DNA from: Tubulanus polymorphus | Lineage: Eukaryota; Animalia; Nemertea | Length of the DNA: 64,000 nt | Reading direction: 5' to 3' | Assembly (NCBI RefSeq): GCF_964204645.1 | Contig: NC_134028.1 | Span: 17,367,653-17,431,652, forward strand | Shown: in pieces, positions 26,015 through 47,950 of the stretch | Position numbering within the stretch: the stretch's first letter is position 1 | How the letters are laid out: every line of letters starts with the position of its first letter | Translations under genes and position numbers: made by a program | The notes under the pieces: generated by a model | Told to the model about the DNA's origin: nothing | The model's database searches: none | What the model saw: only the letters and a program-made list of their open reading frames with translations

Positions 26015-26220
26015 TCAGCGTACTATAAAAGTAATGATGTAAGGTAAAATAGTAGAAGTTAACACTTAGCCGTGGGCCTACGCCAGTTAAATATCCACTT
26101 CGTTTTAAAAATGGCTAAATTTTCTCAATTCAACATGGGAAAATTAAGACCTTTTCGTCAGACGAAAATAGATATACTCTCAAATCAAGTAGAAATAGAC
26201 ATTGGATATCAATCAGCCTT

Positions 26221-27453
<1,233 letters not shown>

Positions 27454-28479
27454 GGTTCGAACCCTGCAATTCCAAAACCTGCCAAAATATTCACGTGCAA
27501 ATGAACCCAGCCTTCGTGCGCGTGGGGCCGTCGCGCAGTTTTGGTCATAAGTCTCAGTGGAAGTACGGCCAGTGCCACGAACCGGGGACTAGAGGCCTGG
27601 CCCCCACTGGGTGGGTGAGCTTAAAAAGATCCAATGCATGCCTTTGCTTACCTCAGCATACACGTGAAGCTTTACCCGACACCGGCTTTGAAAGTCCTGA
27701 ATGATGCTGCGCCAGCGGTTGAGGGCGTTTAAGAAATTAGGACACTTTTCGCGACGTCAAAACAAGTCGACGTATCTGCATCGACTTGTCGGTGTATCCT
27801 CACTAGTCGACAAAATTTTGCCGAGTTATCGAGAAGGCTATCGCGATCTGACGACATGATTTCGGTGACACGGCTTCACAGTCGACATTGGAAAGTTGAT
27901 TCGTCGAATAAACTTCGTGACATGACGACATTTTTTGTCGACAAGTCGCAATAAGGTCACGACAAGTCGCCATAAATTTGACGACGCGCCGATATAGAAG
28001 ACGAAGATACCAGAAATAAGACGACTGAGTATCAAGTCGTCATAAATATATCGACCTGTCGCCAGGAAAATGGTCGAGAAAACGGAATATGTCGTCAAAA
28101 CGTCACGATATATCGACATATTCATATCGACTTGACGCAATATATCGCGATATATCGACATAAATATGACGACTTGTCGAGTTGGAACGCGACATCTCGA
28201 GGCCCCTTATCGCTTCCGCACTTCAAATGACGGCTTGTCCCGGGGAAAATGAGCAAATAAGCGAAATTTGTCGTGAAAACGTCACGATATGTAGACATAT
28301 TCATGTGGACTTGACACGATATATCGCGATATATCGACATAAATATGGCGACTTGTCGAGTTTGAACGCGACAACTCGAGGCCCTTTATCGCTTCCGTAC
28401 TATATCAGATTAATCGACTTCAAAATAGGCGAAAGCATGTGTCTTTATTACGTTATTAATTCGCCTAATTATTCAAAAA

Positions 28480-30756: not shown

Positions 30757-31305
30757 AGTAATAGGGGTTTAGTTGTTCTATACCAAAGGTCGAAAGGTCG
30801 AGCCCGAGAAATTTTCCAAATGTTAAAATAACAATAATTTCTACTTGAATTAGTCGCGTACACTCCTAATTCAAGTAGAAATTATTATTATTTTAACATT
30901 TGGAAAATTTATCAACCTCAACCTCTCAACCTTTGATATAGAACAACTAAACCCCTATTACTCTATCTAATCACAAGCCTCATAATTTACAAGTCTCAAC
31001 ACGTTGAGTATTCCCTATTACACTAGCCAATCACAAGCCTCATAATTTACAAGTCTCAACACGCAGCTTGGTTTTCCCCACTGTTGAGTAGTATAAATAG
31101 GCGGGACTCACACGCGGTAGGACTCATACGTGGCGGGACGCGTTGAGAGGTAAGTGTTATGTTCAATTTTAATAAAAAATATAGTATTAAAATGGAAGCA
31201 AATAAGTACTACTGTCCAACATGTAATATCGATATAGATAAATCCCAAAAAGCAAGACACAATAAAACTAAAACACATTTAGAGAATAAATTGAAACTAG
31301 AATAT
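30757..31305 (+). repeat. Polinton left TIR
   Basis: Reverse complement of 47402-47950, with about two mismatches seen by eye. Confidence 0.95.
30967..31156 (+). promoter_or_regulatory. Putative Pol II promoter in the TIR: duplicated 37-bp element, TATA box (31092-31099) and GAG|gtaagt donor (31150)
   Basis: aatcacaagcctcataatttacaagtctcaacacg occurs twice and TATAAATA lies ~60 nt upstream of the ORF. The mirror copy sits upstream of pPolB (TATA at 47608-47615). Confidence 0.55.
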
Positions 31306-31428
31306 TTACAGTTATATTCAGAACAGTTAACAAAGGGAAAAAAATTTATTGAATTATGGAATAATGATCCAAATAATGAACAATACGTTGAGGATCCGAT
31401 GTTTATACTAGAAAATGATTCTATTTGA
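31159..31428 (+). CDS. Chimeric 89-aa ORF: pPolB N-terminal zinc finger fused to a duplicate of the HNH ORF C-terminus
   Basis: The first ~49 aa match the pPolB N-terminus (TIR copy, one substitution). The tail LQLYSEQLTKGKKFIELWNNDPNNEQYVE matches the end of 31555-32229. Confidence 0.6.
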   Translation: MFNFNKKYSIKMEANKYYCPTCNIDIDKSQKARHNKTKTHLENKLKLEYLQLYSEQLTKGKKFIELWNNDPNNEQYVEDPMFILENDSI

Positions 31429-31554
31429 GCCTATATACATTCAATGTACAGAGCTATGGAATAAATCTATAAATTCACAGCTGTTACAGCTGTTACTATG
31501 GCGCTGAGATATTATAAAATATTAACCAATTTAGTAAAAAAATACGTATAATAA

Positions 31555-32229
31555 ATGGAACCAGAACAACCACAAACTATCAATATTACAAATAACACTG
31601 GTGTTATAAACATATACTACAAGAAGTGTTCTAAATGTGAATTAGATAAATCATTAACAGAATTTAGTAAGCGTAAGATTAGCAAAGATGGTTTTCAATA
31701 TTGTTGTAAAACTTGTACTAAACTATATACTAAACAATATCGAGAAGATAATATAGAACATTATAATTATTATATGGCAGAATATATGAGAGAAAGATAT
31801 CAAACAGATCTTAATTTTAGATTGAAACAATGCTTAAGGACTAGATTAACACAATTATTCAACAAAGAAACACATTCAGAAACACTATCTAATTTATTGG
31901 GTTGTTCAGATGAATTTCTCATATCATGGATAATATATCAATTCGATGATAAAATGAATGTAGATAATTATGGGGATTATTACCATATTGATCATGTGTT
32001 ACCAATATCTAAATTTAACATGAATGATGAATACAATAAAAAACTTATTTGGGGTTGGAAAAATTTAAGGCCTTTAGAAAAGAAAGAAAATCAAACCAAA
32101 TCTAATAAACTAGATTTACAGTTATATTTAGAACAGTTAACAAAAGCAAAGAAATTTATTGATCAATGGAATAATAATCCAAATAATGAACAATACGTTG
32201 AGGAATTTGATATCAAGGATCCGAAATGA
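31555..32229 (+). CDS. HNH-family endonuclease-like protein with N-terminal Cys cluster
   Basis: KKCSKC...DGFQYCCKTC and YHIDHVLPISKF...WKNLRPL...EN..KSNK. Confidence 0.75.
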   Translation: MEPEQPQTINITNNTGVINIYYKKCSKCELDKSLTEFSKRKISKDGFQYCCKTCTKLYTKQYREDNIEHYNYYMAEYMRERYQTDLNFRLKQCLRTRLTQLFNKETHSETLSNLLGCSDEFLISWIIYQFDDKMNVDNYGDYYHIDHVLPISKFNMNDEYNKKLIWGWKNLRPLEKKENQTKSNKLDLQLYLEQLTKAKKFIDQWNNNPNNEQYVEEFDIKDPK

Positions 32230-32534
32230 CTTATCTGGACAGTTATAGTTACTGCTCCTAATAGATAGACAATAGTAGTGAGATATCAAATAGAATTTAA
32301 ATAAAATATAATAAAAAAAACAATAACTTCAACTAGCTAGTGAATTCTATTATATTTTTAATATTTTCTTTTCAAAAAGAGAATACTTTATATTTTGAAT
32401 AGATCCGAATAGAAATTCTTTAAATTCAAATAGCTAGTATCAGTAGTCAATACTAGAATTCTTTAGCTTTAACTAGCTAGTATCATTTGAAGAATACTTA
32501 TAATATTTTTTTTGCTTTTTTTTCTCTAATATAA

Positions 32535-33137
32535 ATGTCAAAGAAATCTAATAAGAATAGTATTGATATTGAAAAAACATTAGATGATTTAGGTATTAGT
32601 GATAATAAAGATACAGTTGTTTCTAATTCTATTCAAGTTAATAACAATATAGATTATGAATACTATTTATATTGTAAGCATCATCTTGAATTATTAATTG
32701 CTGGCGGGAAATCTAAGGACTTCTTAGGAAAAATAATAACTTTTCAAGAACTAGACTCTATGAAACCCGATAAAGTAATAAAATATTTTAAGATTTATGA
32801 AGAGGCAAGATTAGCTAGAATAAACGACTCTATAAGTGATGGAATTGTCAAATGTTATTCTAAGTTATGTAACCAGTTAATACCAATTGATGATGAAAAT
32901 AAATTATATAATGATTTGAAAAATGACTACTTAGTTATGACTGAATTACAAAAATGGGTTGGTTATGCTTCATTTCAATTAGGATCGGTTATGACATTGA
33001 TTTCTACTGGTGTCATAACATTTTCGAACATCAAGCCTATGGAATATAAATCAGGCAAGAACGAAACAGATGTACTACAACCAAACAGTGAAACAGAAAA
33101 TGAATCAGAACAAAAATTAACTAAAATAAATGAGTGA
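32535..33137 (+). CDS. Polinton hypothetical protein, 200 aa
   Basis: Long ORF in AT-rich DNA with a TAAATG start, inside the TIRs. Confidence 0.75.
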   Translation: MSKKSNKNSIDIEKTLDDLGISDNKDTVVSNSIQVNNNIDYEYYLYCKHHLELLIAGGKSKDFLGKIITFQELDSMKPDKVIKYFKIYEEARLARINDSISDGIVKCYSKLCNQLIPIDDENKLYNDLKNDYLVMTELQKWVGYASFQLGSVMTLISTGVITFSNIKPMEYKSGKNETDVLQPNSETENESEQKLTKINE

Positions 33138-33513
33138 TGGAGTTAAGAAAAAAGCTAGATCCGAGAAACAAATTAAATGGGCAAGAGAATTAGGTAAAAG
33201 ATCTTCAGAATTAAAAAAAGCTAAGAAAAAGAAATTAACTGATATAAATGAATCACAGACTTTATCTGATGGTGCCGTACGACACCCACACGGTGGTATT
33301 GATTCAAATAATAATCCATCTAATTCTTCTAATGCTGGAAGTAATTATAAATTATATATTACAATTGGATTAGTAACAGTTATTATATTATCCGGTGTAA
33401 TATATAAATCAAAATTCAAATCTGATGATAAAGATGATTCCAATGATGATAAACCTATTATACCAGAAAATAAATCAAATGAAACTAAATCTAAATTATT
33501 ATTAATGGATTAA
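33130..33513 (+). CDS. Polinton hypothetical protein, basic N-terminus and one TM segment
   Basis: LYITIGLVTVIILSGVIY hydrophobic stretch and TAAATG start. Confidence 0.7.
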   Translation: MSDGVKKKARSEKQIKWARELGKRSSELKKAKKKKLTDINESQTLSDGAVRHPHGGIDSNNNPSNSSNAGSNYKLYITIGLVTVIILSGVIYKSKFKSDDKDDSNDDKPIIPENKSNETKSKLLLMD

Positions 33514-33516
33514 AAT

Positions 33517-34605
33517 ATGATGAAAAAAGAACAATATTTGAGAGAGTTATATTATAACCCAGAAAGTGAAGTATCATATTCTAACGTTTCAGAATTATGG
33601 AATAAAATTAAATCTGATAAAGAAAAAATAAAATATAGTGAATTAAAATCATGGTTACAAAATCAACCAACATATCAAATCCACAAGAAAATGGATAAAA
33701 AATATTTAACAAGAAAAGTAATGGTTTCATATATTGACCAACAATGGCAAGCTGATTTAATTGACATGAAAAACTTAGAAGAATATAACAAAGGATATTT
33801 TTGGATACTAAATGTTATAGATATATTCAGTAGATACGCATGGAGTATCCCGATTAAAAATTAAACTGGTATAGAAGTTACAAATTCTTTCAAATTAATA
33901 TTTAAAGAAGCTATCCCAGATAAAATACAATTTGATGAAGGTAAAGAATTTTATAACAAACATTTTAAAAAACTATTATCTGATAACGATGTAGAATATT
34001 TTTCAACACATTCAGATAAAAAAGCATCTGTTATAGAAAGATTTAATAAAACATTGAAAACTAGAATGTGGAAATATTTCACCGCTAATGAAACATATAA
34101 ATATATCGATGTGTTAGATGATTTAGTTAAAGGTTATAATAATTCTAAACATAGTTCTATAAATATGAAACCTATACAAGCTAGAAAAGAAGAAAATTCA
34201 GAAATAGTTTGGAATAATTTATATGGAGCATTTGTTACACATGATTTTGGAGAACCTAAATTTAAAATAGGAAAACATGTTAGAATTTCTAAATATAGAA
34301 AAACATTTTATAAAGGTTATACACCTAATTTTACTGAAGAAATATTTAAAATTAAAAAGATAATATTAACTAAACCATTTGTTTATAAATTAGAAGATCT
34401 AAAAGATGAAGAAATATTAGGTTATTTTTATGAACAAGAATTATCATTAGTACCAAATCCAGATGAAATAGAATACAAAATAGAAAAGGTATTGAAAACA
34501 AAAACTCTTAAAGGAAAAAAGTATTCTCTGGTGAAATATAAAGGATATGATGATAAATTTAATGAATGGATTTTATCTAGTAAAATTAAAAGAATAAATG
34601 AATAA
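33517..34605 (+). pseudogene. Polinton rve integrase with C-terminal chromodomain; one in-frame stop at 33862-33864
   Basis: QWQADLIDM, VIDIFSRYAW, QFDEGKEFYN, IERFNKTLKTRMWKYFT, chromodomain YKIEKVL...LVKYKGYDDKFNEWI. The frame continues through a TAA (KN*TG). Confidence 0.9.
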
Positions 34606-35212
34606 AGATTTATTTATATTTGAACCACATAATATGTTAGTTACTGGAGTTACAAATTGTGGTAAAACACACTTCATATTAGACTTGTTAGAAACTATTT
34701 ATAAGAATCATTTTGATAATATAATATTATTCTGCCCAACTTATGAAATGAATGAAACATATAATAGAGATATAGTTTTTAAAGATAAAAAGTTTATTAT
34801 ATTAAATTCTAAAACAGTGAAAGATAATTTAGATAATTGTATAAAAATTGCATTAGATATTTATAAAGGATCTAATACATTATTTATTATCGATGATTGC
34901 GCAAATTTACATGATTCTAAAATTAGAGAAAGTGAGTTATGTTATTTAGCTTTCTCTGGGAGACATTTTGGGATAACAACTTGGGTTTTAAATCAGAAAT
35001 ATAATTCAATTGTGAAAGACTTTAGAGAGAATATAAGATTTCTAGTTTTATTCTACAACAAAGATAGAAAATCTATGCAACAATCATTGGAAGAAAATCA
35101 AATTATACCTCCTGAATTACATGATGAATATATGAATAAATTAAAAAATAATAAAGGTTCCAAATTACTTATGAGATTACAATTTCCATATGAATATAAA
35201 TTTATAAAATAA
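34598..35212 (+). CDS. DNA-packaging ATPase (A32/FtsK-like)
   Basis: Walker A GVTNCGKT, Walker B LFIIDD, and the GRH and NQ motifs. Confidence 0.92.
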   Translation: MNKDLFIFEPHNMLVTGVTNCGKTHFILDLLETIYKNHFDNIILFCPTYEMNETYNRDIVFKDKKFIILNSKTVKDNLDNCIKIALDIYKGSNTLFIIDDCANLHDSKIRESELCYLAFSGRHFGITTWVLNQKYNSIVKDFRENIRFLVLFYNKDRKSMQQSLEENQIIPPELHDEYMNKLKNNKGSKLLMRLQFPYEYKFIK

Positions 35213-35229
35213 AATCCTAATTCAAAATA

Positions 35230-35600
35230 TTATAGAATTCACTGTATACTAATGGATGAGTGGATGAATTGGATGAATTGGATGAGTGGATGAATGGATG
35301 AGTGTAATAATATATAATTTACATATGTTTTTTATTTTTAAAACAGTAAGAGTTTGATTTGAAGTTATTTTATCAATTTTATACTATATTTAAATATTAT
35401 TTTAATAATATATATATATATATTGTGTTAAATTTAATAAAGAATAAAAATATTATATTTATACTCATACTATTCTTCCAATTTATGTGTTAAAAAGTAA
35501 AATATATATATTATTATACTCATCCACTCTTCCACTCATCCAATTCTTCCAACTCATCCAACTCATCCATTCATCCATCAATATACAGTGAATTCTATAA
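35230..35600. repeat. Internal inverted repeat with (tggatgag/aa)n arms between convergent Polinton gene blocks
   Basis: ttatagaattcactgtata...tggatgagtggatgaa versus ctcatcca...tatacagtgaattctataa. Confidence 0.8.
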
Positions 35601-35605
35601 TCTTT

Positions 35606-36661
35606 TTAATTTTCATTTTCATATTTTTCTTTAAGCTTATTGTATTCTAAATATATATCCCTTTGCATTTTCTTTGGTATAATTCCTAAATAATTCTCGA
35701 GTTTATATTTCCTAAATGTTTCTCTTGAAAATATTTTTGGAATATAATTTTCGATTTCAGTTTTAGATGGATGTTTATTTAAAAATTCTCTAAAATCATC
35801 ATATTTAAGTTCAAATAAATTCATTGCATAAGTAACATTTGGTTTAAAGTTATCTAACTTTTTCAATATGGTAACTATATCATTACTCAATAAATAATCT
35901 ATAAATGTTTTTCTATACCACCGATAATCTAATATATTCTTATTATTAAATTTTGGATTTATAACTGTTGGATTTTCTATTACATTATCTGTACCAATAT
36001 GTTTAATTGAGTATTTATGATTCAATTGTTTATCATATATTACATATTCTTTACATTTTTCACACCAAGATTTAAATACTTGTATTGCATGGGCCGAATC
36101 ATTTCCACCTTTTGTTTTTAATTTATAATGTTTTGCCCAATTAGCCTTTGTTATACATTCATTACAGAAGGCACAATAATTCTGATCCTCTTTGCATTTA
36201 TCTTTATATATATTGGCATATGTTTTTACTAATTGTAAAATATGTTCATCTTTTTTGATGTGTAATAAATAATCATTATAATTATCAAAATCTTCTTCAC
36301 AATACATACATCTGATGTTATCTTTTGGTTGAACATTTGATTTTTCTATTTTAGGTTCAATATTATATTCTATTTTTGTTTCAATCTTATCATCATTCGA
36401 TGTAGAAGGTATAACATTATCTTCTATTTTAGATTCAATATCATTCTTATCTTCTATTTTAGGTTCAATATTATCTTCTTTTTTAGGTTCAATATTATCT
36501 TCTATTTTTGTTTCAATATTCTTATCTATTTTACTTATTCTATATTTGAATTGATTAAAGTAATCTCCAAAATACTTACTGTATTCATCATAAGGTAATA
36601 TATAATATATATCTGATATCATTTCACTTGGAGATTGTATTTCATATATTCCACCTTCCAT
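35606..36661 (-). CDS. Polinton zinc-finger protein with IE(P/T)KIEDN repeats, 351 aa
   Basis: CMYC...H...H, CAFC...H...H and CEKC...H...H motifs, plus tandem 8-aa repeats. Confidence 0.8.
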   Translation of the reverse strand: MEGGIYEIQSPSEMISDIYYILPYDEYSKYFGDYFNQFKYRISKIDKNIETKIEDNIEPKKEDNIEPKIEDKNDIESKIEDNVIPSTSNDDKIETKIEYNIEPKIEKSNVQPKDNIRCMYCEEDFDNYNDYLLHIKKDEHILQLVKTYANIYKDKCKEDQNYCAFCNECITKANWAKHYKLKTKGGNDSAHAIQVFKSWCEKCKEYVIYDKQLNHKYSIKHIGTDNVIENPTVINPKFNNKNILDYRWYRKTFIDYLLSNDIVTILKKLDNFKPNVTYAMNLFELKYDDFREFLNKHPSKTEIENYIPKIFSRETFRKYKLENYLGIIPKKMQRDIYLEYNKLKEKYENEN

Positions 36662-36693
36662 TTATTATATACATTTTTATTAAAGTTAAAATT

Positions 36694-37941
36694 CTAATAC
36701 ATAACACTATCTAATTGTGAATTTACAATATTTAATTGCGCGTCAGATATAATATAAATATGCATTTTAAAATTTTTGATTCCTTTTTTCTTTGTTATGA
36801 ATAATTGGATCCCATCTTTTGTATTTTGTAATTTTTTCCCAGAACCATGTAATAAGTTATCTTCAGTTGTTCTAAAATCTAACCATAATGCATATTTATT
36901 ACCGGTATAATAATCAATTTGATTAATATTACAATTTTCAAATGATTTTACTTTTTCATTCATAAAATGTTTTTTAATTTCTACCCATTGATCAATCATT
37001 CTCATTCCTTGACAAAATATTTTATTTGCTATACCTTCAATAGTTATTTCTACTTTTGTTATTTCAGGATAATAATAATTATCAACATTTATTGCGCCAT
37101 TAGTATACGTTCCAATGGTAAAAAATATTAATATACCTTTAATAGATCTTCTAGGGAAGTTAATATTCTCATTAATTATTTCATCATTTGCATTAATAGT
37201 TACAGTTTTAAATTTATCAATATAATCATATAATAATGAAAACCCTTGATTATATTTAGTTTGAATTATACTTGAAATATTTTCATCAGTTACTGTATCA
37301 TATTCTAAACATATATTCGATAATTTATAACTCATATCTTTATTAACGCTAGATAATACAATTTCATTAACAGGAGCAAATGTTATCTCAAATATAATAT
37401 CTTCTTGAATTGCGTATTTATATAAAGGTGCATTATTATTTATCAATTCAAAGTCTAATGGAATTTTATATTTGCTTCCATATATACTTTTTATCAATTT
37501 ATCTACATCATTTGTTAATATTGCGCTATTAGCTTCTGATCTTAATTTATTTTGGTTTTCTGATTGAATTCCTTGAAATATCATATTATTTCTATTTTCT
37601 TTAGTTAACCATAAATCTTTATAATGCATAAATAAATTATAATCATCTAATGAGAAAACTGTTTCTGGACCAATCTTTATTGTTAACTTTTTAATCAAAT
37701 ATCTTCCAACATTATCAACAACATAATTATTATTATTACCGATTACTTTTATATCAGCTGATAAATAAATACTGTTTGGAACATAAAAAGTATTTTGTGT
37801 TAATCTCGGAATTCTAACATATAAAGTTTCATCGGGATTAATATTTGAAGGGTTATGAGTAATTATATGATGTGATCTTTCTGCTTTAATAGCGTTAGAT
37901 ATTCTAGAAATCTTCGAAGGACTTATATAACTCCCACTCAT
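36694..37941 (-). CDS. Major capsid protein (double jelly-roll, inferred), 415 aa
   Basis: Size and motifs THNPSNINP...VRIPRL, VVDNVGR.LIKKL, Y..YKDLWL, CLEYDTV and ALWLDFRT..D..LHGSG, typical of Maverick capsid proteins. Confidence 0.8.
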   Translation of the reverse strand: MSGSYISPSKISRISNAIKAERSHHIITHNPSNINPDETLYVRIPRLTQNTFYVPNSIYLSADIKVIGNNNNYVVDNVGRYLIKKLTIKIGPETVFSLDDYNLFMHYKDLWLTKENRNNMIFQGIQSENQNKLRSEANSAILTNDVDKLIKSIYGSKYKIPLDFELINNNAPLYKYAIQEDIIFEITFAPVNEIVLSSVNKDMSYKLSNICLEYDTVTDENISSIIQTKYNQGFSLLYDYIDKFKTVTINANDEIINENINFPRRSIKGILIFFTIGTYTNGAINVDNYYYPEITKVEITIEGIANKIFCQGMRMIDQWVEIKKHFMNEKVKSFENCNINQIDYYTGNKYALWLDFRTTEDNLLHGSGKKLQNTKDGIQLFITKKKGIKNFKMHIYIISDAQLNIVNSQLDSVMY

Positions 37942-37986
37942 TTATTTAACAAAAAAAATTAATTATTTATTTTTTGATATCATGGT

Positions 37987-39660
37987 TTACTTGATATTTT
38001 TTGATATCATATTTACTAAACCAAAAATAATAGCACTTACAACCGTAATTAAAAATAAAATAATATGTTCAGCAGCAAAGTTAATAATGTTTCCTGCAGA
38101 TTTCAATATAAAACCAACAATTGAAGCAATAACTCCTGGTAGTGCTGCAGCAGATTTCTTTGATAGTTCCCATAAATATTTTGCTAATTTCTTTAAACCA
38201 TCTTTAACTTTATCTTGTATAGAATTATTATCATTCGGGGGTTTATCCGGTTTATTTGGAGTAGGAGTAGATTTCAAAGCATTTGATATTGCTAAACCAA
38301 TTGTTGTAAATAACATAGTTACAGCTGTTAGAATTGAAAGAATTGTTATTCCTTCTAACTTAAATAATAACTTTATTCTGTCTTTTAATGATATTTCAGA
38401 ATTTGGTTTTATCAACAAATCTTTAAAAATAACTTTTAATCTATTAATATTATAATCATATGATTTTAATAATGATTTAATTTCTTCTTTTTGTAATTCT
38501 ATGTTATATTCTAAATCATCTTTTTCTTTTTCTAAATATGCATTTCTTTTTTTAAATTCAATTTCTTCAATAACTTTATTATCTCTATCTAATTTTAGTT
38601 GTTCTATTTCTTTATTTTTATCAGTTAATTCTTTTTCTAAAGTTCTAATCTTAAAATCTCTTATACTTTTATCATGCGCAATTTTATCAGCTGATTCTTG
38701 CATACCTTCAATTTCTCTACGTGTTTGTTCAGGAAATGCTTCTAATTCATCATCAGTTAAATCAAATAATCCTTTTTCTAGTAAATATTGCAGTCGATTT
38801 ATTCCAGTACTATTCATTTCTTCTTCTGAATCACTTAATCTATTAATTTGTTTTTCTAATTGTAATTGTAATTGTAATTGACTTGAATCATTATCAATTG
38901 GTTGAGTGTCTCTTCTCGATGTTTCGGGTGTTGAAGATCTTAATTTATCTAATCGATTTCTATTCTCTTCCATTTCTGGATCAAAATCAGTAGGATTTGG
39001 ATTTTTAAATGGTGAATATTTGTTTATATCAATATTAGGAATTGGTTCTTCTTCATTTACTCTATCGAGTGCATTCCATATAATTCTGAGAAATTCTCTA
39101 CCACCTTTTGAACTTTCAATTGTAGATGTTGCTCGCATTCCAGGTTCAAAAATATTTTCTTGACCCATTCTAGATAATTGAATTGATACGGTATTCCTAT
39201 TTAATTCAAGATTATAATACCATGCATCATTTTTAAATTCTAAATTATTTGTGAAATATGGGTCATCTTTAAAAATTTGTTCTACAACATCTTCAGTATC
39301 AATTTCATCTATTACAACTTTTGGTAATAATTCGTTAACAATTGTATCTGTTACTCTAGATTTCATTCTATATAATTCCATAGGTTTATCAGGATATTTT
39401 TCTTGTTCTTTTACTAATAGTTCCATAAATTCTTTTCTTTCTCTTCTAGTTGAAATTCTACCCCTTTCAGGAGCTTCTAAATATTTATTTAATTTTTCAC
39501 GTAATTCGGAATCATCATCTTCACCTAAATTAGTATTATATGCTGATTCATCATTATTATCAATATTAGTTTCTACATCATTATAATCATCATCAATATA
39601 TCCTTCATTATTATTTCCCATTTCTCCCATTTCATAATCTTCTCCACCTTCTACATCCAT
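37987..39660 (-). CDS. Acidic/coiled-coil protein with C-terminal hydrophobic helices, 557 aa
   Basis: Heptad-rich centre, then GITILSILTAVTMLFTTIGLAI and AAALPGVIASIVGFILK segments. Confidence 0.82.
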   Translation of the reverse strand: MDVEGGEDYEMGEMGNNNEGYIDDDYNDVETNIDNNDESAYNTNLGEDDDSELREKLNKYLEAPERGRISTRRERKEFMELLVKEQEKYPDKPMELYRMKSRVTDTIVNELLPKVVIDEIDTEDVVEQIFKDDPYFTNNLEFKNDAWYYNLELNRNTVSIQLSRMGQENIFEPGMRATSTIESSKGGREFLRIIWNALDRVNEEEPIPNIDINKYSPFKNPNPTDFDPEMEENRNRLDKLRSSTPETSRRDTQPIDNDSSQLQLQLQLEKQINRLSDSEEEMNSTGINRLQYLLEKGLFDLTDDELEAFPEQTRREIEGMQESADKIAHDKSIRDFKIRTLEKELTDKNKEIEQLKLDRDNKVIEEIEFKKRNAYLEKEKDDLEYNIELQKEEIKSLLKSYDYNINRLKVIFKDLLIKPNSEISLKDRIKLLFKLEGITILSILTAVTMLFTTIGLAISNALKSTPTPNKPDKPPNDNNSIQDKVKDGLKKLAKYLWELSKKSAAALPGVIASIVGFILKSAGNIINFAAEHIILFLITVVSAIIFGLVNMISKNIK

Positions 39661-39676
39661 TTACATAATAAAAAAA

Positions 39677-41065
39677 TTAAAATTTAAAATATAATATTCC
39701 TCCGATTACAATTCCTATACAAGTTATAGCTAATTTAGTATTTTCATGGGATTTATTATCATCATTTTGTTTAATTATATCATGTTGAATTTTATCAGTT
39801 CTATTATTTTCTGATGTATTGTAATCTTTTATTTTAGAATCATTATTTAATTTAATATTCTTAGTTTTAGTTTCTGTTGATTGAATATGTTTTTTATTTT
39901 TTTCACCTTCCATTAATTTTGGAGCAGTAATAATCTTTTTATTTATATCATTTAATCCAAATGAATTATTTATTGTTGCAGTTTTAATTAGATTATTATA
40001 ACCAATTATGTTTCCCATCTTTAATACTAAATCATTAGAAATAATTAATAGATTAGGGCCTATACAATAATTTAGTCTTACATGAGATTTATCTAAATAA
40101 TTTTGATATCTTATAATGTTTTCTGGAATCGATCTATTTTTATCATTATGTATGGAATCTTCAAATAAAACTTTAAATTGTTTTTGTGTATCGAATGATG
40201 TATTCAAATTTCCAATTATCGGTGATCTTGTTTCAACTTGTGATCCTAGAATACATATCAAATAAGTTCTAATAGATTGATTTATTCTTTCTATACCTGA
40301 TTTAGTAAAACCTTCACTATTTTCTAAAATAAAATATACCCAACCATTATTGTTTTCTTGTTTTAAATTATCATCAAATTTCGGTAATTTATTAAAATTT
40401 AATGTTTCTAAATCCTTAGTTTCTATTTTACCATAACCTAATTTATTATTATAGATATTATAAAAACTATTAGATGGTATGGGAAGTGCACAATATTCTG
40501 CAATCTTTTTAGGGCAAGGAAGTGATCTTATTGTTCCAATTTTTGTTCTAAAATCAGAATTATTCATATCTATATTAAATTCATTACAAATCTTATAAAA
40601 CTTAGATAAATTAATATTATTATCCAATTCTTTGAAATATCTAGATCCTGGTAAAGCACACTCTAATTCATTTAATATTATTCTGATTTGAAAGTATGTA
40701 TGAAATCTAAATAAACTTTGAATTAATTTATATTTAGAATTATTCAAATGATCATTCCAACTAATTCCACATCCTGTTGTTGCACAATAAACAGCAAAAT
40801 TTAATTGATTCTGCCAATACTTCATATTAGATTTTAATAACCATTGTTTTTCATCTTTCAATTTTTTAAAATTAATTAAATATACATGAAATATATTTTC
40901 CATCTTTGCATTAAAATTATTAGTTTCAGTAACATAAATATATAAATCAATTAATGAATCTAAAACTTCATTTCTATATGTAATATCTTTATTAAAATCT
41001 ATTGCTGGAATATTATATTTAATTGATTTATTATATCGGAAAGCTTTTGGAAAACTATCTACCAT
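39677..41065 (-). CDS. Polinton conserved hypothetical protein, 462 aa, C-terminal TM
   Basis: WQNQLNFAVYCATTGCGIS and FRFHTYFQIR motifs, C-terminal LAITCIGIVIGGILYF. Confidence 0.82.
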   Translation of the reverse strand: MVDSFPKAFRYNKSIKYNIPAIDFNKDITYRNEVLDSLIDLYIYVTETNNFNAKMENIFHVYLINFKKLKDEKQWLLKSNMKYWQNQLNFAVYCATTGCGISWNDHLNNSKYKLIQSLFRFHTYFQIRIILNELECALPGSRYFKELDNNINLSKFYKICNEFNIDMNNSDFRTKIGTIRSLPCPKKIAEYCALPIPSNSFYNIYNNKLGYGKIETKDLETLNFNKLPKFDDNLKQENNNGWVYFILENSEGFTKSGIERINQSIRTYLICILGSQVETRSPIIGNLNTSFDTQKQFKVLFEDSIHNDKNRSIPENIIRYQNYLDKSHVRLNYCIGPNLLIISNDLVLKMGNIIGYNNLIKTATINNSFGLNDINKKIITAPKLMEGEKNKKHIQSTETKTKNIKLNNDSKIKDYNTSENNRTDKIQHDIIKQNDDNKSHENTKLAITCIGIVIGGILYFKF

Positions 41066-41081
41066 TTATATAATTAAAAAA

Positions 41082-41366
41082 TTAATAATTTATTAATTCT
41101 TTTAATAATTTATCTTGTTCTTCAACTGTTATATGACCATTTAAACTTATTATATAATCTAGTGTATTCTTTAATTTATTAATTTCTTTTATATTAGTTT
41201 TAATTTTTTCTTTATTACTTTTTATATTTAATTTTGAACTTATACCAGTTAAAACACTTGAACTTAATCCTAACACACCAATTGATATAGCTAAAGGTGT
41301 TAATGGACTGAATATTGCTAGAAATGTTATTACAGAACTAATTGTAACCGAACCACTTATAATCAA
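41082..41366 (-). pseudogene. 3' remnant of a membrane-protein gene (5' end apparently deleted)
   Basis: Hydrophobic ORF with no ATG/TAAATG start, abutting the truncated tail of the upstream gene. Confidence 0.55.
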
Positions 41367-41403
41367 ATAATATATAATTTTACTTTTTAAATATTTTATT
41401 ATA

Positions 41404-41768
41404 TTATATTATTTCATATTTCTGTTGTTCTTTACTTGGGGTATAATAATCTGATAATTTAGGTTTGTATAGATGTAATTTTTCTTTATTTGTTACTGCG
41501 TTATATAAACTCATTGCATCATCAACTGAAAATCTCTATGTGAAATCTTCTGATCATATAATTCTTTATTGATGTAATCCATATAGTTTTGTCTCTTTTC
41601 TCTATATTCTTCTGCAGCTTTATTGTATTTCTCTAACGCTAAGTTATGTCTTCTTTGTTCTCCTAATGAACTATTTTTATCAATATGTTTAAATAAATAA
41701 CCACCACCAGTAAATGCTAAAGCGTTAACAATTGCCGATCCTATAATAGTTATAATTGCAGAAGCCAT
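41404..41768 (-). pseudogene. Polinton small protein (MAS...NALAFTG...RRHNLALEK) with a frameshift at ~41530
   Basis: After RDF the shifted frame continues VDDAMSLYNAVT...PKLSDYYTPSKEQQKYEII. Confidence 0.7.
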
Positions 41769-41793
41769 TTATTTAGCAAAAAAAATTATGTAT

Positions 41794-42015
41794 TTATATG
41801 GGAGGAATATATTTTTGTTTTTCCAAATAATCAATAGTTAAATTAGATAAAGTAACTGCTAACGTTAATTTCAAAATATCATTTATATCAAATCTATCAA
41901 CATTAACACTTCCCATTTTGAATACTTTTTTTAATACCATTGAATAACCAACAGTTCCAACTGATAGTAATGCGCCATTATATAATCCAGTTATTATCCA
42001 CTTATTATCACTCAT
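41794..42015 (-). CDS. Small hydrophobic Polinton protein, 73 aa
   Basis: Two hydrophobic segments, TAAATG start, homologous copy at 48908-49105. Confidence 0.75.
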   Translation of the reverse strand: MSDNKWIITGLYNGALLSVGTVGYSMVLKKVFKMGSVNVDRFDINDILKLTLAVTLSNLTIDYLEKQKYIPPI

Positions 42016-42357
42016 TTATTTATCAAAAAAATTACTATCTTCAAAATATTTAGTTAACTTATTTATGATTAATTCAACATTTATTTTATTACTAGTTTTA
42101 TGATTATCATATATTTTGGATAATATGTTTTTAATATCTTCAATAATTCCATCTTCATTTAATTCATAATATTCTAAAGGTGATTTAATTAAATCAATTA
42201 CTTTTTCTATATTATACTTTTCTTTATCAATCATTGATGCATTGTTAAATGATTTACTTTTTATATCAGTAATTACATCATTTAGTTTAATTCTCATTTC
42301 TTTACCATGTTTAAAATCAAACCCAAAACATATACTCGGTCCAACAGTTATATTCAT
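42016..42357 (-). CDS. Polinton hypothetical protein, 113 aa
   Basis: TAAATG start. Its stop codon abuts the next ATG. Confidence 0.7.
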   Translation of the reverse strand: MNITVGPSICFGFDFKHGKEMRIKLNDVITDIKSKSFNNASMIDKEKYNIEKVIDLIKSPLEYYELNEDGIIEDIKNILSKIYDNHKTSNKINVELIINKLTKYFEDSNFFDK

Positions 42358-42374
42358 TTATATAGTGAAAAAAA

Positions 42375-43098
42375 TTACTCTTTACATCTTATAACTAATT
42401 CATAAATTACAGGGAAATTATTTAAATCAATTAAGTATCCATTATGATTTCTAATTTCTAATCTAAAATTATTAAAACTAGGAATGCATTTGCGTTCCAA
42501 ATTCTTTAACATTTTTTAATGGTAAAATATTTAATATACTAGAATTACATGTTGTATCTTTAGTTGCTTCAAATGTTTTTGTTGGGTCAATTAAATTGCA
42601 ATAAATATAAAAATGTGTAAAAGGTATTATATTTGAAATACCTTCTACGTTTACTGTAACAACATCTGGTTCAATTCCTAGCAATTTAGCTATAGGTTTT
42701 TTTACCATAAATGCATGTTGACTTTCATCAAATACCTTTATTTTAATTCTATTTGAGCTATCACTTTTTATAAATCTTATTAAAAATTTATCATCTTTTC
42801 TAATTTTCAACCGTGCTCTACGATTAATTTCTTGAGATAATGTTTCTAAATTATATAATCCTGGTCTTAGAAATAGATGAAACCATTTATTTATATTTCT
42901 AATATGAATTAAAAAAGTATTATGTTCAATAGTTTTATTCGATATATTATAAAAAGAATTACATAAACTTATATTTACTAATTTTAAATCTACACAATTC
43001 TTGAATTCTCTATCTAATTGTACTAATAAATTATGAGATTTATAATTTGTAAGTTTTCTAGAATCTACAAATATTCTGTATTCTTTTAATTCTACCAT
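42375..43098 (-). pseudogene. Minor capsid (penton-like) protein with a frameshift/deletion near 42480
   Basis: IFVDS...NSFYNI...N.F...LRPGLYNL..L...IN...YIYCNLI...IL..LP. The shifted frame gives the expected tail FRLEIRNHNGYLIDLNNFPVIYELVIR. Confidence 0.72.
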
Positions 43099-43113
43099 TT
43101 ATTTTACATATTT

Positions 43114-43455
43114 TCATTCAAAATCAATATCGTGGTGCCCTTTTTCATTCTTACCTTTGTATACGAAATAGAAATCTCCAGAACATAATTCTTCTGGATC
43201 TTCACTTGATAATCTATGAAATCTATCTGGTAAATAAGTTCTGAATTTATATTTATTTCCTTTTAATCCTTCATATTCTAAATGAATTACTAATTTATCT
43301 CCATATTTATTAGTAATTGTTTCAATGTTAGTAATTAAATATTTCTTGTGAATTGTTAACTCAGTTAGTTTTTTAAATTTATAATCTACAGATTTGACGC
43401 TTGAAGTATCTTTAATTCTATCTAAGAATTCACTGTGTACTTGTTTACTCTCCAT
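43114..43455 (-). CDS. 113-aa protein, possible OB-fold ssDNA-binding protein
   Basis: FKKLTEL...Y.I...T.KYG...LPDRF pattern, next to pPolB. The fold is an inference. Confidence 0.6.
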   Translation of the reverse strand: MESKQVHSEFLDRIKDTSSVKSVDYKFKKLTELTIHKKYLITNIETITNKYGDKLVIHLEYEGLKGNKYKFRTYLPDRFHRLSSEDPEELCSGDFYFVYKGKNEKGHHDIDFE

Positions 43456-43483
43456 TTATTATACAAATTTTTATTGAAATTGA

Positions 43484-46400
43484 TTAACACGCTAGAATCC
43501 TTTTCATAATCTCATTTTCTTTTGTTTCTTCTCTTTTGAATTTTATATATTCATCTAAATTGCAACCATAGGCGACTGTGTGGATTCCATCATCTAAAAT
43601 ATATCTTTTATCATCAAATGGATTCAAACTTATCTTCTCTATCTCTTCAATATACATTTCATGATCTTCAGATCTTAAACATTTCATCTTATGTTTTCTA
43701 ACTTCTTCATTAAATATACAATTGATGTAATCTTTGAAATGAATATTCTTTTCTACTACACTTTTGGTTATTCCTTTTAACTTTTTAGCTTCATGTTCTT
43801 TAGTTTTATATGAATACATTTTAGATCTAATACCTATGAACTCTATCATTTCTTCACCACCTAATTCATCCTTAAACTTCCCAGGAACTTTTTTATTATC
43901 ATTGGTAAACAATTCATGATTTTTTGGATAATTACTAAAATCAAAATGGTGTTTTAATGTTTTTAAATCATCTGTTATGTTATCAGTTTTTATCTTTAAT
44001 ATGTAAGAATCTGTATCAAAATATAAGATTTCTATGTGTTTTTCTCCAAAATGAGGTTGTAATATATTATAATAGAATTCATACATTAGTAATTTTGATA
44101 ATTCTAAAACTGCAGCTCCAACATAAATCGGTTTATTAAATTTCATAGAAGTTCTTTTTAATTTAACTGCTGCTAAATTTTCATCGAATATTCTATTACC
44201 TATAAATTTCGGATACGATTGTAAATGTCTAATTCTTTTACCATTACTAACTAACTCAATATCATTTCTATTTCTTATGTTTTCACATGTTTTTCCATAG
44301 AATGCATTATTCATTAACTTAAAAAAATCTTTTTCAAAATCAGTTTTAGATTTAGTTCTCTGTGTAGTATTAAAATCTATATATTTTTCTAACCATTTAG
44401 ATTGACTGAATGAAATATATCTATGTACTTTTTTTAATATCATTCCTTGTCTCAAATAAAACTTCAACATTCTATAATGCACAACGTAATTATATTTATC
44501 TTCTTGAGTTACCATTAACTTTTCAGTATGAATATGATTATCAGGTTTAATTCTTTTTTGATAATTTGATAATTCTTCATGTTTAACAGTTTTATGTTCG
44601 GGACAGTAAGCTAGATTTCTAGATTTGAATTTAATATTTTCAGGATATTCTAAATCTACAACAAAGAAGTAACCAGTATCTGAATCATCTGCAATATCTA
44701 GGATTCTTTTCTTCCAATCAAATTTATCAATTTGTAAAACTTCAGTTATTTCAAACATCCCATAAGGTTGTGGTTCCATCATTGCCCAACCATAAAGATT
44801 ATTTGCATCTATGTATAATAATTTATATCCAGGATTATCATTTACATTGAAATATCTATCACCCAATACACCTGAAACACCTCCTCTTATAGATTTTTCA
44901 AATAATAATAATTGATCTATATTTGTTAACAAATCCATTTTTATATCTGTAAATTTTAATCCACAATCCCATGTTAATCCCGGTGATGAATAACAATGAC
45001 AAGGATCAATATTGAAATATTTTAGGTTTACATCTCTAAACCTTTCGAATATATCGGTTAATAATAATACATCTGATTTTAAATATAAATCTACTAATTG
45101 CCCATGATTTTCTATTTTGAAATGATTCCAAATATTCAATGTTCTATTATATACTTCATCTTTAACATATTCATTTTTTAATTCATCATAAAATTGTTCT
45201 TTCAATAATTCAGTTATTTTAAAATCATTATGATTTTTATAGAAAGAATATGGAATCGCTCCTTTATATCTCATTAATTGGAAATCATCATTATTTGGGT
45301 AATATTCTTTTAATATTTTTAATTCATCATCAACTAATGATTTTGATAAGTTATCTAATGAACTACTTAAAAATCTATATGAATCTATAAATCTTAGACA
45401 ACCAAATTGGAATGATATATAATTCTCAGATGTTTTAGCTAACATTCTAAATTTATAAGTTGGTATTTTATCTTTTGATCTATTTGAATTTAATATTTCT
45501 ATTTCATTATTGATTTCTTCTATTTTATGACATAACTGTTTGATAAATAAATGTGCATCATATCCTGATAGATTATGAAATATAACTGGTACAAAATTAA
45601 TTTTCTTAGCTTGTAAGTTACAATTCTCATGTGCAGCGCCTCTAAACTTTCCATTCAAATGATCATGGTCTCTTACTTTTTTATCAGATGAATAGAATAC
45701 TTGATTACAATAATAACATTTATCTGCAAACGCAAATTCTTCTTTATCTTCTTCTGTCATTATAATTTCTATATTTTTATTTAACTTTTCATTAAATCTT
45801 ATTTCATATTCAATTAATAAGTCACAAAAATGATTGATAACATTTTCATTTCTGTAATGATAATATTCACTTTCAATTAGTTCTGGATAATCAGATTTAA
45901 TATATAACCCGAAAGCAGCAGCTGATTGATGAATCTTTTTAATAGTATTTGTTATTGGTGGTTCATCTGAATAATCACTTTCATTAGAATTTAATTTCTT
46001 TCTTTTATAATATATATCTTTTCTATCTTTATCTGTTAATTCTTTATTTAATGATTCAAAATCTCCATATATTACAAATGGTACTTTATTTTTGTAATCA
46101 TATTTTTTGAATCTTAAAATTTTATCCTTTTCATTTGGTAAAACTAATTTACAATAATCATGATTTTCACATAATTGTTTATGATTTAATAATGCACTTT
46201 CAGTTCTGAATTTATGTAAACATTTTCTACATAGATATATTTTATTATCAAAATCATTTTCTGATTTAAAAAATAAATCAATTCTTTTAATCCACATATA
46301 ATGATTCTCATAATATAGTATATCTATAACATCATTTGAATCATAATATTTTGATAGGTATAAATGTTCTAATGTATAATGTTTAATATTATTTCCTTTT

Positions 46401-47548
46401 GTATTTGGTAATTTGATTAAATCAAATACATTTATCTTTATATTATTATCTCTTTCTATCTTTGGGATGTCTTTAATTATAACAGGATACTTATCTATCT
46501 TATAATTATTTTCAAATGGTTTATAATGAGTTAATCTAAAACTATGTGTAATATCTTCTGTTGGATGTAAACAACTTATTATAGCCCATAGAAAACATTT
46601 ATCATCTTCATTTTGTACGTTTATAACAGCATTAGTTTTAAATGGTAGTTTGATATAACTCGATGCTTCAATATCTGGTTCTTTATAATATGATACATTA
46701 TTTTCATCTATTGGTTTTGATTTAGTTAACTTATTATATTTTGTGTTATAAACATGTAAAGTTATAAATATTATCTCATCAAATATTAAACCAGATCCTT
46801 CAAAATATTTCTCTTCTATTTTAGTTTTTACTTCATTATAACATTTATCTAATTTATCATCTATATGTTGTTTAGATATAATATGTTGTGAATGAGAATT
46901 TATATTATATATTGGTTTATCTTCAGATTTTATAAACTTTACTTTAACTGATATACTAATTTTAGGATATTCAACATCTGTAATTATTTTTATTATTTCT
47001 TTCATATTTTCTAAATGTTTTTTATTTTCTTCTATTGTTTTACTTTTATGAAATTTAAACTCGATAGCTGCTGGACCATTATCACTTTTAAATGCTTCGG
47101 TTATTTCTATATCTTTTTTATTATCTAATGAATTAATATAATTTCTTACATCTTCCATGTATGGTCTTTTATTGTTTGATTTATTTTTTATTCTTTTAAT
47201 TGTCTTCTGTTTCTTATCGTTATCATTATCAAAATAATCTTCACCTAAAATATCATTATTCTTATTTCTAATATGACTTATAGATTTTAAATGTTCTTTA
47301 TAATATCTTTTATCACTGAATGATTGATTACATGTATCACATTTGTATGTTTCTTTTTCATCCTTTAATTCTTCTAATTTATTTTCTAATATATCATCTT
47401 CATATTCTAGTTTCAATTTATTCTCTAAATGTGTTTTAGTTTTATTGTGTCTTGCTTTTTGGGATTTATCTATATCGATATTACATGTTGGACAGTAGTA
47501 CTTATTTGCTTCCATTTTAATACTATATTTTTTATTAACATTGAACAT
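43484..47548 (-). CDS. Protein-primed family B DNA polymerase (pPolB) with N-terminal zinc fingers and an embedded endonuclease-VII-like domain, intact
   Basis: ExoI YGDFES, HNLSGYDAH, CYYC...RDHDHLNGKFRGAAHENCNL, YIDANNLYG, KLMNNAFYGKT, YFDTDS. The start may be the second Met (47515). Confidence 0.96.
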   Translation of the reverse strand: MFNVNKKYSIKMEANKYYCPTCNIDIDKSQKARHNKTKTHLENKLKLEYEDDILENKLEELKDEKETYKCDTCNQSFSDKRYYKEHLKSISHIRNKNNDILGEDYFDNDNDKKQKTIKRIKNKSNNKRPYMEDVRNYINSLDNKKDIEITEAFKSDNGPAAIEFKFHKSKTIEENKKHLENMKEIIKIITDVEYPKISISVKVKFIKSEDKPIYNINSHSQHIISKQHIDDKLDKCYNEVKTKIEEKYFEGSGLIFDEIIFITLHVYNTKYNKLTKSKPIDENNVSYYKEPDIEASSYIKLPFKTNAVINVQNEDDKCFLWAIISCLHPTEDITHSFRLTHYKPFENNYKIDKYPVIIKDIPKIERDNNIKINVFDLIKLPNTKGNNIKHYTLEHLYLSKYYDSNDVIDILYYENHYMWIKRIDLFFKSENDFDNKIYLCRKCLHKFRTESALLNHKQLCENHDYCKLVLPNEKDKILRFKKYDYKNKVPFVIYGDFESLNKELTDKDRKDIYYKRKKLNSNESDYSDEPPITNTIKKIHQSAAAFGLYIKSDYPELIESEYYHYRNENVINHFCDLLIEYEIRFNEKLNKNIEIIMTEEDKEEFAFADKCYYCNQVFYSSDKKVRDHDHLNGKFRGAAHENCNLQAKKINFVPVIFHNLSGYDAHLFIKQLCHKIEEINNEIEILNSNRSKDKIPTYKFRMLAKTSENYISFQFGCLRFIDSYRFLSSSLDNLSKSLVDDELKILKEYYPNNDDFQLMRYKGAIPYSFYKNHNDFKITELLKEQFYDELKNEYVKDEVYNRTLNIWNHFKIENHGQLVDLYLKSDVLLLTDIFERFRDVNLKYFNIDPCHCYSSPGLTWDCGLKFTDIKMDLLTNIDQLLLFEKSIRGGVSGVLGDRYFNVNDNPGYKLLYIDANNLYGWAMMEPQPYGMFEITEVLQIDKFDWKKRILDIADDSDTGYFFVVDLEYPENIKFKSRNLAYCPEHKTVKHEELSNYQKRIKPDNHIHTEKLMVTQEDKYNYVVHYRMLKFYLRQGMILKKVHRYISFSQSKWLEKYIDFNTTQRTKSKTDFEKDFFKLMNNAFYGKTCENIRNRNDIELVSNGKRIRHLQSYPKFIGNRIFDENLAAVKLKRTSMKFNKPIYVGAAVLELSKLLMYEFYYNILQPHFGEKHIEILYFDTDSYILKIKTDNITDDLKTLKHHFDFSNYPKNHELFTNDNKKVPGKFKDELGGEEMIEFIGIRSKMYSYKTKEHEAKKLKGITKSVVEKNIHFKDYINCIFNEEVRKHKMKCLRSEDHEMYIEEIEKISLNPFDDKRYILDDGIHTVAYGCNLDEYIKFKREETKENEIMKRILAC

Positions 47549-47950
47549 AACACTTACCTCTCAACGCGTCCCGCCACGTATGAGTCCTACCGCGTGTGAG
47601 TCCCGCCTATTTATACTACTCAACAGTGGGGAAAACCAAGCTGCGTGTTGAGACTTGTAAATTATGAGGCTTGTGATTGGCCAGTGTAATAGGGAATACT
47701 CAACGTGTTGAGACTTGTAAATTATGAGGCTTGTGATTAGATAGAGTAATAGGGGTTTAGTTGTTCTATATCAAAGGTTGAGAGGTTGAGGTTGATAAAT
47801 TTTCCAAATGTTAAAATAATAATAATTTCTACTTGAATTAGGAGTGTACGCGACTAATTCAAGTAGAAATTATTGTTATTTTAACATTTGGAAAATTTCT
47901 CGGGCTCGACCTTTCGACCTTTGGTATAGAACAACTAAACCCCTATTACT
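47402..47950 (-). repeat. Polinton right TIR (includes the 5' end of pPolB)
   Basis: Reverse complement of 30757-31305. Confidence 0.95.

Follow-up and report, generated by a model that had tools for sequence, protein, structure and literature searches.

The subject of this analysis is a Polinton-type element (positions 30757 to 47950) in a 64,000-nucleotide stretch of the genome of the nemertean Tubulanus polymorphus (NC_134028.1, positions 17,367,653 to 17,431,652; hereafter the window). Here, we report that the genes of this element start at the sequence TAAATG, a signal that is real, conserved, specific and apparently undescribed. Because nearly all genes of the element and of its close relatives start with the poxvirus late sequence, the transcription machinery of a pox-like helper is likely borrowed. 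We regard it as somewhat probable that the element is a satellite whose genes are read in the cytoplasm by the polymerase of a pox-type helper, with a host-type promoter in its terminal inverted repeats (TIRs) in addition.

TAAATG occurs at 13 of the 15 gene starts of the element, compared with 37/585 other ATGs (neither starts nor in frame), 2/60 ATGs in the non-coding DNA of the element and 47/1718 ATGs in the host flanks, which served as a stand-in for host gene starts. A preliminary description of the window had listed 13 gene starts with this sequence, and all of them are starts of open reading frames (ORFs) that read TAAATG. TAA precedes these ATGs far more often than background predicts (binomial P 2.4e-14; 3.8e-14 against the local upstream TAA frequency of 57/870 positions). 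The motif had been supposed to mark structural genes, a restriction that does not hold: the HNH nuclease, ATPase and zinc-finger genes of the element carry it, as do a nucleoside kinase gene in the relative L001 and the integrase genes of L001 and L002. Intergenic gaps are 0-45 nt for most genes, and there is thus little room for separate polymerase II promoters.

Relatives that carry the capsid gene comprise seven metagenome loci (L001-L007) and three genome-bin loci (L008-L010). Their starts were picked by hand, leaving out the decayed L010 entirely, ORFs in antisense and internal ATGs where a gene is cut or broken. TAAATG stands at 30 of 31 such starts in L001-L004 (capsids 70-76% identical) and at 7 of 9 in L005-L007 (capsids 51-52% identical). 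An automatic count gave 15/16 starts for L001, 7/7 for L002, 3/3 for L003, 5/6 for L004, 3/3 for L005, 4/5 for L006, 0/2 for L007, 0/4 for each of L008-L010 and 13/17 for the window; L002 and L003 are near copies, as are L005 and L006. The motif is kept although gene order and orientation vary between relatives, and neither TAG nor TGA precedes the ATG at any start of the window and L001-L004. The kinase of L001 (L001:10340-10981) is a deoxynucleoside kinase (Pfam dNK E 1.7e-31) whose gene is preceded by this same promoter; among its 38 matches, none has a name pointing to a helper. The L008, L009 and L010 fragments lie in bacterial and archaeal genome bins, where they are probably contaminants that come from a eukaryote or from a virus of one. 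No relative was found by scans of viral contigs with the capsid, a capsid alignment, the protein-primed family B DNA polymerase (pPolB) alone or an ATPase alignment.

We also retrieved 33 viral contigs with a related pPolB, and TAAATG starts are scarce in 32 of them. These 32 elements have TAA at 20/374 starts and A at position -3 in 218/374; the highest count is that of L040 (3/14). Of these 32, the 12 below 33% G+C have TAA at 10/114 starts, and a giant-virus bin of 22-24% G+C (G002) has TAAATG at 4/44 starts. A+T content does not explain the TAAATG starts. The one exception among the 33 contigs, L031, has TAAATG at 7/7 starts at 38% G+C, including those of its pPolB and of a protease-integrase fusion, with T at -9 (numbering below) in 4/7 as read by eye. 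On a quick pPolB tree of 22 of the 33 loci, from which loci without an intact pPolB of more than 900 amino acids (aa) were excluded, L031 groups with L013, L014 and L018 (support 98), apart from the clade of the window (100). The motif label is forced to change twice on this tree and no more than once on an ATPase tree. By its place on the pPolB tree, L031 is a second, separate Polinton lineage with TAAATG starts.

The features of the element are as follows; T-run and A-run class refer to the stretch upstream of the start, discussed below.

30757 to 47950, no strand: Polinton-type element, 17,194 bp, with terminal inverted repeats and a GATATA duplication.
30757 to 31305, forward strand: left terminal inverted repeat, with a terminal palindrome, CCAAT at 31027, TATAAATA at 31092, a splice-donor-like GGTAAGT at 31149 and a copy of the pPolB start.
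31555 to 32229, forward strand: HNH/endonuclease VII-like nuclease, 224 aa (PHROG 1035, E 7.8e-18); TAAATG, A-run class.
32535 to 33137, forward strand: conserved unknown protein, 200 aa, with homologs in L001, L002, L004 and L010; TAAATG, T-run class (4/4).
33130 to 33513, forward strand: basic protein, 127 aa, containing a hydrophobic stretch, its gene sharing 8 nt with the upstream one; TAAATG.
33517 to 34605, forward strand: RVE integrase with chromodomain, with a premature stop near 33862; start TAAAAT-ATG.
34598 to 35212, forward strand: A32-like packaging ATPase, 204 aa (Pfam Pox_A32, E 1.8e-12); TAAATG within the 3' end of the integrase gene.
35229 to 35601, no strand: long inverted repeat separating the ATPase gene from the 351-aa gene, whose 3' ends converge here.
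35606 to 36661, reverse strand: zinc-finger-like protein, 351 aa; TAAATG, A-run class (3/3).
36694 to 37941, reverse strand: double jelly-roll major capsid protein, 415 aa; TAAATG, T-run class (4/4).
37987 to 39660, reverse strand: coiled-coil protein with a hydrophobic C-terminus, 557 aa; TAAATG, T-run class.
39677 to 41065, reverse strand: conserved unknown protein with a hydrophobic C-terminal tail, 462 aa, with homologs in L001, L008 and L009; TAAATG, T-run class.
41082 to 41400, reverse strand: gene remnant read in three frames, 144 aa in L001 (L001:2541-2975), whose 5' part and promoter are gone here.
41511 to 41768, reverse strand: small hydrophobic protein whose L001 version has 139 aa, the frame here being broken near the end; TAAATG, T-run class.
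41794 to 42015, reverse strand: hydrophobic protein, 73 aa; TAAATG, the TAA doubling as the stop of the upstream gene (the sole such case).
42016 to 42357, reverse strand: unknown protein, 113 aa; TAAATG.
42478 to 43098, reverse strand: candidate minor capsid protein, 206 aa, ending early (254 aa in L001); TAAATG, A-run class (2/2).
43114 to 43455, reverse strand: unknown protein, 113 aa, adjoining pPolB; TAAATG.
43484 to 47515, reverse strand: pPolB with an endonuclease VII insert; likely conserved start at 47515 (TAAAATG), first in-frame ATG at 47548.
47402 to 47950, reverse strand: right terminal inverted repeat, with CCAAT at 47680, TATAAATA at 47615 and a splice-donor-like GGTAAGT at 47558; predicted host RNA polymerase II promoter.

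The signal has a second fixed part. Numbered relative to the T of TAAAT, position -9 holds a T at 45 of the 47 starts of the element set (13/13 in the window) and at 30 of the 83 non-start TAAATG sites of the same sequences (Fisher p 2.7e-12, homologous promoters not being independent); T also occupies -10 in 30/47 starts. The likeness to poxvirus post-replicative promoters proposed in the preliminary description is thereby borne out by a conserved motif and by a fixed upstream T of which that description had made no use. The upstream T-run that it reported is present in 7 of the 13 window starts (T-rich at -13..-10), and the other six have an A-run instead, at -13..-10, followed by the T at -9. 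The T-run class is found throughout upstream of the capsid gene and the 200-aa gene (4/4 each) and of four more genes (2/2 each), and the A-run class upstream of the 351-aa gene (3/3) and the candidate penton gene (2/2).

In vaccinia virus, the TAAAT(G) of late promoters spans the start codon and the 10th upstream base is a conserved T among other Ts, and intermediate promoters combine TAAA with an AT-rich stretch 15-19 nt upstream (PMC11980589). The late core is described as about 6 nt from the initiator (PMC12722222), TAAA as read by the poxvirus polymerase itself (PMC12917281), and TAAATG as in use in entomopoxviruses (PMC3061580). In supplement 1 of PMC12722222, as counted by eye, T occupies both -9 and -10 in the late promoters L3L, A17L and C3L, only -9 in the intermediate promoter A1L, only -10 in G8R and neither position in the early promoter D5R. 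The element shows TAAAT(G) over the ATG and a T-rich core with an upstream T, with a one-base ambiguity of counting. As far as these promoter alignments go, the initiator matches poxviruses well and the T-run class matches late promoters, while the A-run class lies outside the vaccinia intermediate register. An assignment of the A-run class to poxvirus intermediate promoters was rejected, as the A-run is nearer than 15-19 nt and nearer than in A1L.

Scanning viral contigs for the motif twice (27 and 57 loci) returned mostly chance matches, with TAAATG at 43/546 starts in the second. They also yielded a pox-like contig, L131 (Pfam Pox_A32, Pox_ser-thr_kin and Pox_L3_FP4), with TAAATG at 11/16 starts plus starts of the TAAAT-ATG type. 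Since the scan match that retrieved L131 is not at a gene start, we treat this contig as a comparator and not as a candidate helper. L131/L079 is a 17-kb pox-like virus fragment of 19% G+C with genes for L3, a kinase, an A32 ATPase and an NAD-dependent ligase.

The integrase and pPolB genes had been described as lacking the motif. The integrase of the window starts at TAAAAT-ATG and so lacks the exact sequence, but this is a near variant, and its counterparts in L001 and L002 have TAAATG. The first in-frame ATG of pPolB (47548) has no such motif, but the probable conserved start at 47515 reads TAAAATG. The closest pPolB homologs (P0363 and P0365) begin at the equivalent of this second ATG, which follows an A-run that lies within one base of the register at 36661, 43098 and 43455. 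The alignment thus makes 47515 the likely conserved start of pPolB. The host-type promoter that had been proposed for pPolB is supported by prediction, as CCAAT, TATA and a splice donor are all present in the terminal repeat upstream of the gene; pPolB may therefore have both a host-type and a pox-type promoter, each of them predicted. At 47557-47523, an AG lies 35 nt after the splice-donor-like site, just ahead of the conserved start. A very short intron at this place would remove the first pPolB ATG; it has no pyrimidine tract, and we mention it as a speculation.

Hairpins lie between the convergent genes of the element and of two relatives (z -14, -10 and -12), and their sequences are unrelated. 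The inverted repeat of the element (35229-35601) has a z of -14, with 0/100 shuffles folding as well. At the equivalent junction, L002:3740-3830 and L004:3180-3260 keep the structure and not the sequence. Six other stretches folded as a comparison gave z values of -2.4 to -4 in five cases and -1.4 in one.

We propose the following mechanism. The fixed two-part signal (a T- or A-rich core with a T nine bases upstream, then TAAATG) is likely a promoter, and in the cytoplasm it would be recognized by the RNA polymerase that a co-infecting pox-like virus brings. If poxvirus biology is a guide, transcription would begin inside the AAA and slip, giving an untemplated 5' poly(A) leader that would replace the unfavorable T at -3 of the start codon, and read-through transcripts would end at the long hairpins. 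The polymerase II promoter predicted in the terminal repeats would let an integrated copy make pPolB in the nucleus without a helper. The integrated copy may thus represent the dormant form, much as a provirophage awaits its giant virus. A wider version of this proposal is that a widespread lineage of animal Polintons consists of endogenous poxvirus virophages, dormant in the germ line under a host promoter and expressed from pox-type promoters on infection by an invertebrate poxvirus, a wiring that would have arisen in at least two Polinton lineages; we consider it plausible, at somewhat less than even chances.

Several observations weigh against transcription by a pox-type helper. Both the transcript starts and the helper are predictions from sequence. 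TAAATG starts are not exclusive to pox-like contigs: a giant-virus fragment, L060, has them at 4/4 genes (one chosen by the search pattern), and three near-identical fragments read as prasinovirus-like have them at 4/10, 4/11 and 4/9, without the upstream T. The distant relatives L008-L009 (capsids 33-36% identical) have TAAATG at 0/7 starts and TAAAATG at 4/7, the rest having neither, and five genes switch or mix T-run and A-run class between relatives. The register is also imperfect, as the "10th nucleotide" of vaccinia fits only when counted from the first A and is one base off from the T, and the A-run lies about 3 nt nearer the initiator than in vaccinia A1L. L131 is looser than the element, with T at -9 in only 5/11 and at -10 in 6/11 of its TAAATG starts. 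No element protein matched L131 or L060, and no pox-specific family was found in the element except the A32 ATPase, which is itself common to Polintons.

We judge it unlikely that the helper is instead a large DNA virus of the cytoplasm other than a poxvirus, or an autonomous, linear, plasmid-like element of the yeast type with a pox-related polymerase. L060, from a giant-virus bin, would suit the former (T at -9 in three of its four TAAATG starts). For the latter, the ends of the yeast virus-like elements are protein-primed, their TAAAN initiator yields 5' poly(A) leaders and their transcripts stop at stem-loops (PMC6211774), and the element has strong hairpins at its convergent gene ends. 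The motifs known from such systems are nevertheless rare among the 47 starts: the upstream conserved sequence (UCS) ATNTGA of yeast elements occurs at none, the mimivirus-type AAAATTGA at one and the CroV-type TCTA at six. The late promoter of African swine fever virus (ASFV) has a TATA initiator (PMC7163114), and TATA is at the initiator in 18/47 starts overall and 3/13 in the window; an asfarvirus late initiator was rejected as the common part, TATAA preceding the ATG in only 18/47. The giant-virus bin G002 is likewise poor in TAAATG (4/44), and the locus richest in such starts among the 57 of the second motif scan is the pox-like contig. Transcription with no helper at all, by host polymerase II, perhaps through the zinc-finger protein of the element or by splicing from the terminal-repeat promoters, would make the pox likeness convergent. 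A full host-type promoter with a splice donor is predicted in both repeats, the zinc-finger-like protein is encoded by the element, and the prasinovirus-like fragments reach 4/9 to 4/11 TAAATG starts; to our knowledge, prasinoviruses have no polymerase of their own. Against it, there is no splice acceptor (only 6/47 starts have an AG in the interval from the fixed T to the ATG), the motif is missing from 32 of the 33 other pPolB elements, and a templated leader with T at -3 contrasts with the prevalence of A at -3 among the control starts. A cap two bases from the AUG would also be poorly translated. We therefore hold this explanation to be less likely still.

A by-product of translation or gene packing is very improbable and largely refuted. 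TAAATG might arise from stop-start coupling, from overlap with the AATAAA of the upstream gene or from A+T bias, and the genes are indeed tightly packed, with AATAA ahead of the ATG in 9/13 window starts (24/47 overall) and one TAA that is a true upstream stop. That single case, however, is the only one among the 13 in which TAA is the stop of the upstream gene, and TAA closes any upstream ATG frame in 3/13; coupling would also not favor TAA over the absent TAG and TGA. The motif is kept at divergent pairs with no upstream gene (L001 10981/11054, L002 5548/5568 and L031 684/719), is missing from AT-matched controls and is present in L031 at 38% G+C. The coupling and composition effects named in the preliminary description as possible causes thus fail, and neither they nor AATAAA overlap explain the fixed T at -9. 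As candidates for the common part of the signal, we also rejected trans-splice acceptors (acceptor AG in 6/47), the baculovirus TAAG (9/47 within 45 nt) and AATAAA overlap (AATAA in 24/47).

The element itself is a Polinton in the broad sense and not a typical adintovirus. It has a pPolB, an rve integrase, an A32 ATPase, a double jelly-roll capsid, long TIRs and a 6-bp duplication. Its capsid does not match the Maverick capsid profile PF21738, which L013 and L018 match (E 7e-56 and 3e-47), and a capsid profile retrieved no ORF from the 33 pPolB loci. A tblastn search with two Polinton protease queries gave no adenain-type protease (best E 0.87), and a very divergent protease is possible. Family profile searches gave no match to RNA polymerase or capping enzyme families among the element proteins. 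The capsid model (pLDDT 81.6) aligns with iridovirus and PBCV-1 capsids in Foldseek (E 2.7e-15), and the protein collection contains 749 relatives of it, many of which lie on megabase contigs. The pPolB gene is a 1354-aa ORF whose homologs carry PF03175 and PF02945. Pieces of the integrase match Pfam rve (E 0.0086) and Chromo (E 5.4e-5), both weakly, and are 76-87% identical to the integrases of L001, L002 and L004. The 351-aa protein has C2H2-type look-alikes at 0.90-0.92, which we take as a lead. The penton label of the candidate minor capsid protein (42478-43098) is tentative, with no family match in profile searches. The 462-aa protein has no Atlas or PDB match, and its model (pLDDT 36) yields no fold.

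The G+C content of the element is about 24%, compared with 32-43% in the surrounding host region, and flanking ORFs with DUF1280 and SCAN domains point to an animal host. GATATA, the 6-bp target-site duplication, is identical on both flanks, and the terminal repeats of 549 bp each are identical at 547/549 positions. Each opens with a 206-nt imperfect palindrome (30757-30962 and 47745-47950) with 97-nt arms that are 91% complementary; the terminal sequence is thereby repeated in reverse, which may bear on replication priming. At 31300-31390, immediately internal to the left repeat, the HNH gene's 3' end (about 32115-32205) occurs a second time, in an in-frame fusion with the copy of the pPolB start. 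The element is deeply covered over its full length by DNA reads labeled as the same species, most of them 90-99% alike, and it therefore has many diverged copies. Four further runs with this species label gave 3, 3, 9 and 0 scattered contigs and are uninformative on expression. Four genes are damaged in the copy studied here: the integrase, the small gene near 41511, the candidate penton and the remnant at 41082-41400. By itself, this copy may no longer be able to complete the cycle. Beyond the right repeat, at 48790-49119, a piece of the element lies in inverted orientation and decayed, with about 90% likeness to 41802-42132; its start context is TGA-ATG, as in the decayed capsid gene of L007. 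Outside the element, a GT-rich simple-repeat array at 26111-27700 produces long spurious ORFs on both strands.

It has long been asked how animal Polintons produce virions and why none has been observed. For this lineage, a promoter specific to a helper would be a concrete answer, as the element would stay silent until a pox-like virus arrives. If this is true, the provirophage system extends from protists to animals, and promoters can name the class of a helper from sequence and point to undiscovered poxviruses and to a heritable anti-poxvirus defense in animals. If the helper exists, the element would be a new form of the provirophage idea. The start codon context may also offer a way to sort Polintons into helper-dependent and autonomous ones. 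In the literature searched, with subscription papers and most supplements outside its scope, pox-type promoters in animal Polintons were not found; the word "promoter" is absent from the main texts of PMC8502044, PMC11131425, 10.64898/2026.06.19.733378 and 10.1101/2024.03.23.586382.

Among known systems, Mavericks/Polintons and adintoviruses, as described in PMC8502044, share with the element the pPolB, an rve integrase with chromodomain, the A32 ATPase, a double jelly-roll capsid, long TIRs, the 6-bp target duplication and many copies per animal genome. The element differs in having no PF21738 match or adenain-type protease, in several predicted membrane proteins and in TAAATG instead of AAA-ATG. 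Polinton-like viruses have been reported from entomopoxvirus occlusion bodies and proposed to be poxvirus parasites (PMC11296320). Compared by their description in that report, they differ from the element in their length of about 12 kb, in the presence of a protease and in the lack of an rve integrase; its main text contains none of "promoter", "motif" or "TAAAT", and its supplements may hold a remark on promoters.

The yeast elements pGKL1/pGKL2 are, like the element, linear with terminal repeats, and share a TAAAN initiator and stem-loops near gene ends (PMC6211774). The element has no UCS (0/47) and no polymerase genes, has a capsid and an integrase, and sits in a nuclear genome. Dependence of the kind proposed here has a precedent among yeast virus-like elements, one of which relies on the pox-related polymerase of another. 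The post-replicative promoters of poxviruses, in the texts available (PMC11980589, PMC12917281, PMC12722222 and PMC3061580), share TAAAT(G) at the start codon, a T-rich core about 6 nt upstream, a T about ten upstream, the variants TAAAATG and TAAAT-ATG, and T-rich and A-rich upstream classes. Here, in contrast, the carrier is a Polinton without its own polymerase, the upstream T is stricter than in L131 and the A-run is about 3 nt closer than in A1L. Small integrating viruses of protists are described as sharing a promoter motif with their helper, as in mavirus and CroV (PMC8547959) and in Gezel-14T and PgV (10.1101/2022.07.28.501842). Mavirus, the EMALEs and Gezel-14T resemble the element as small integrating double-stranded DNA viruses with a pPolB or integrase; compared with mavirus and Gezel-14T, the element has a different capsid lineage, no protease that we could find, a motif of the pox type in place of TCTA or AAAATTGA, and an animal as its host.

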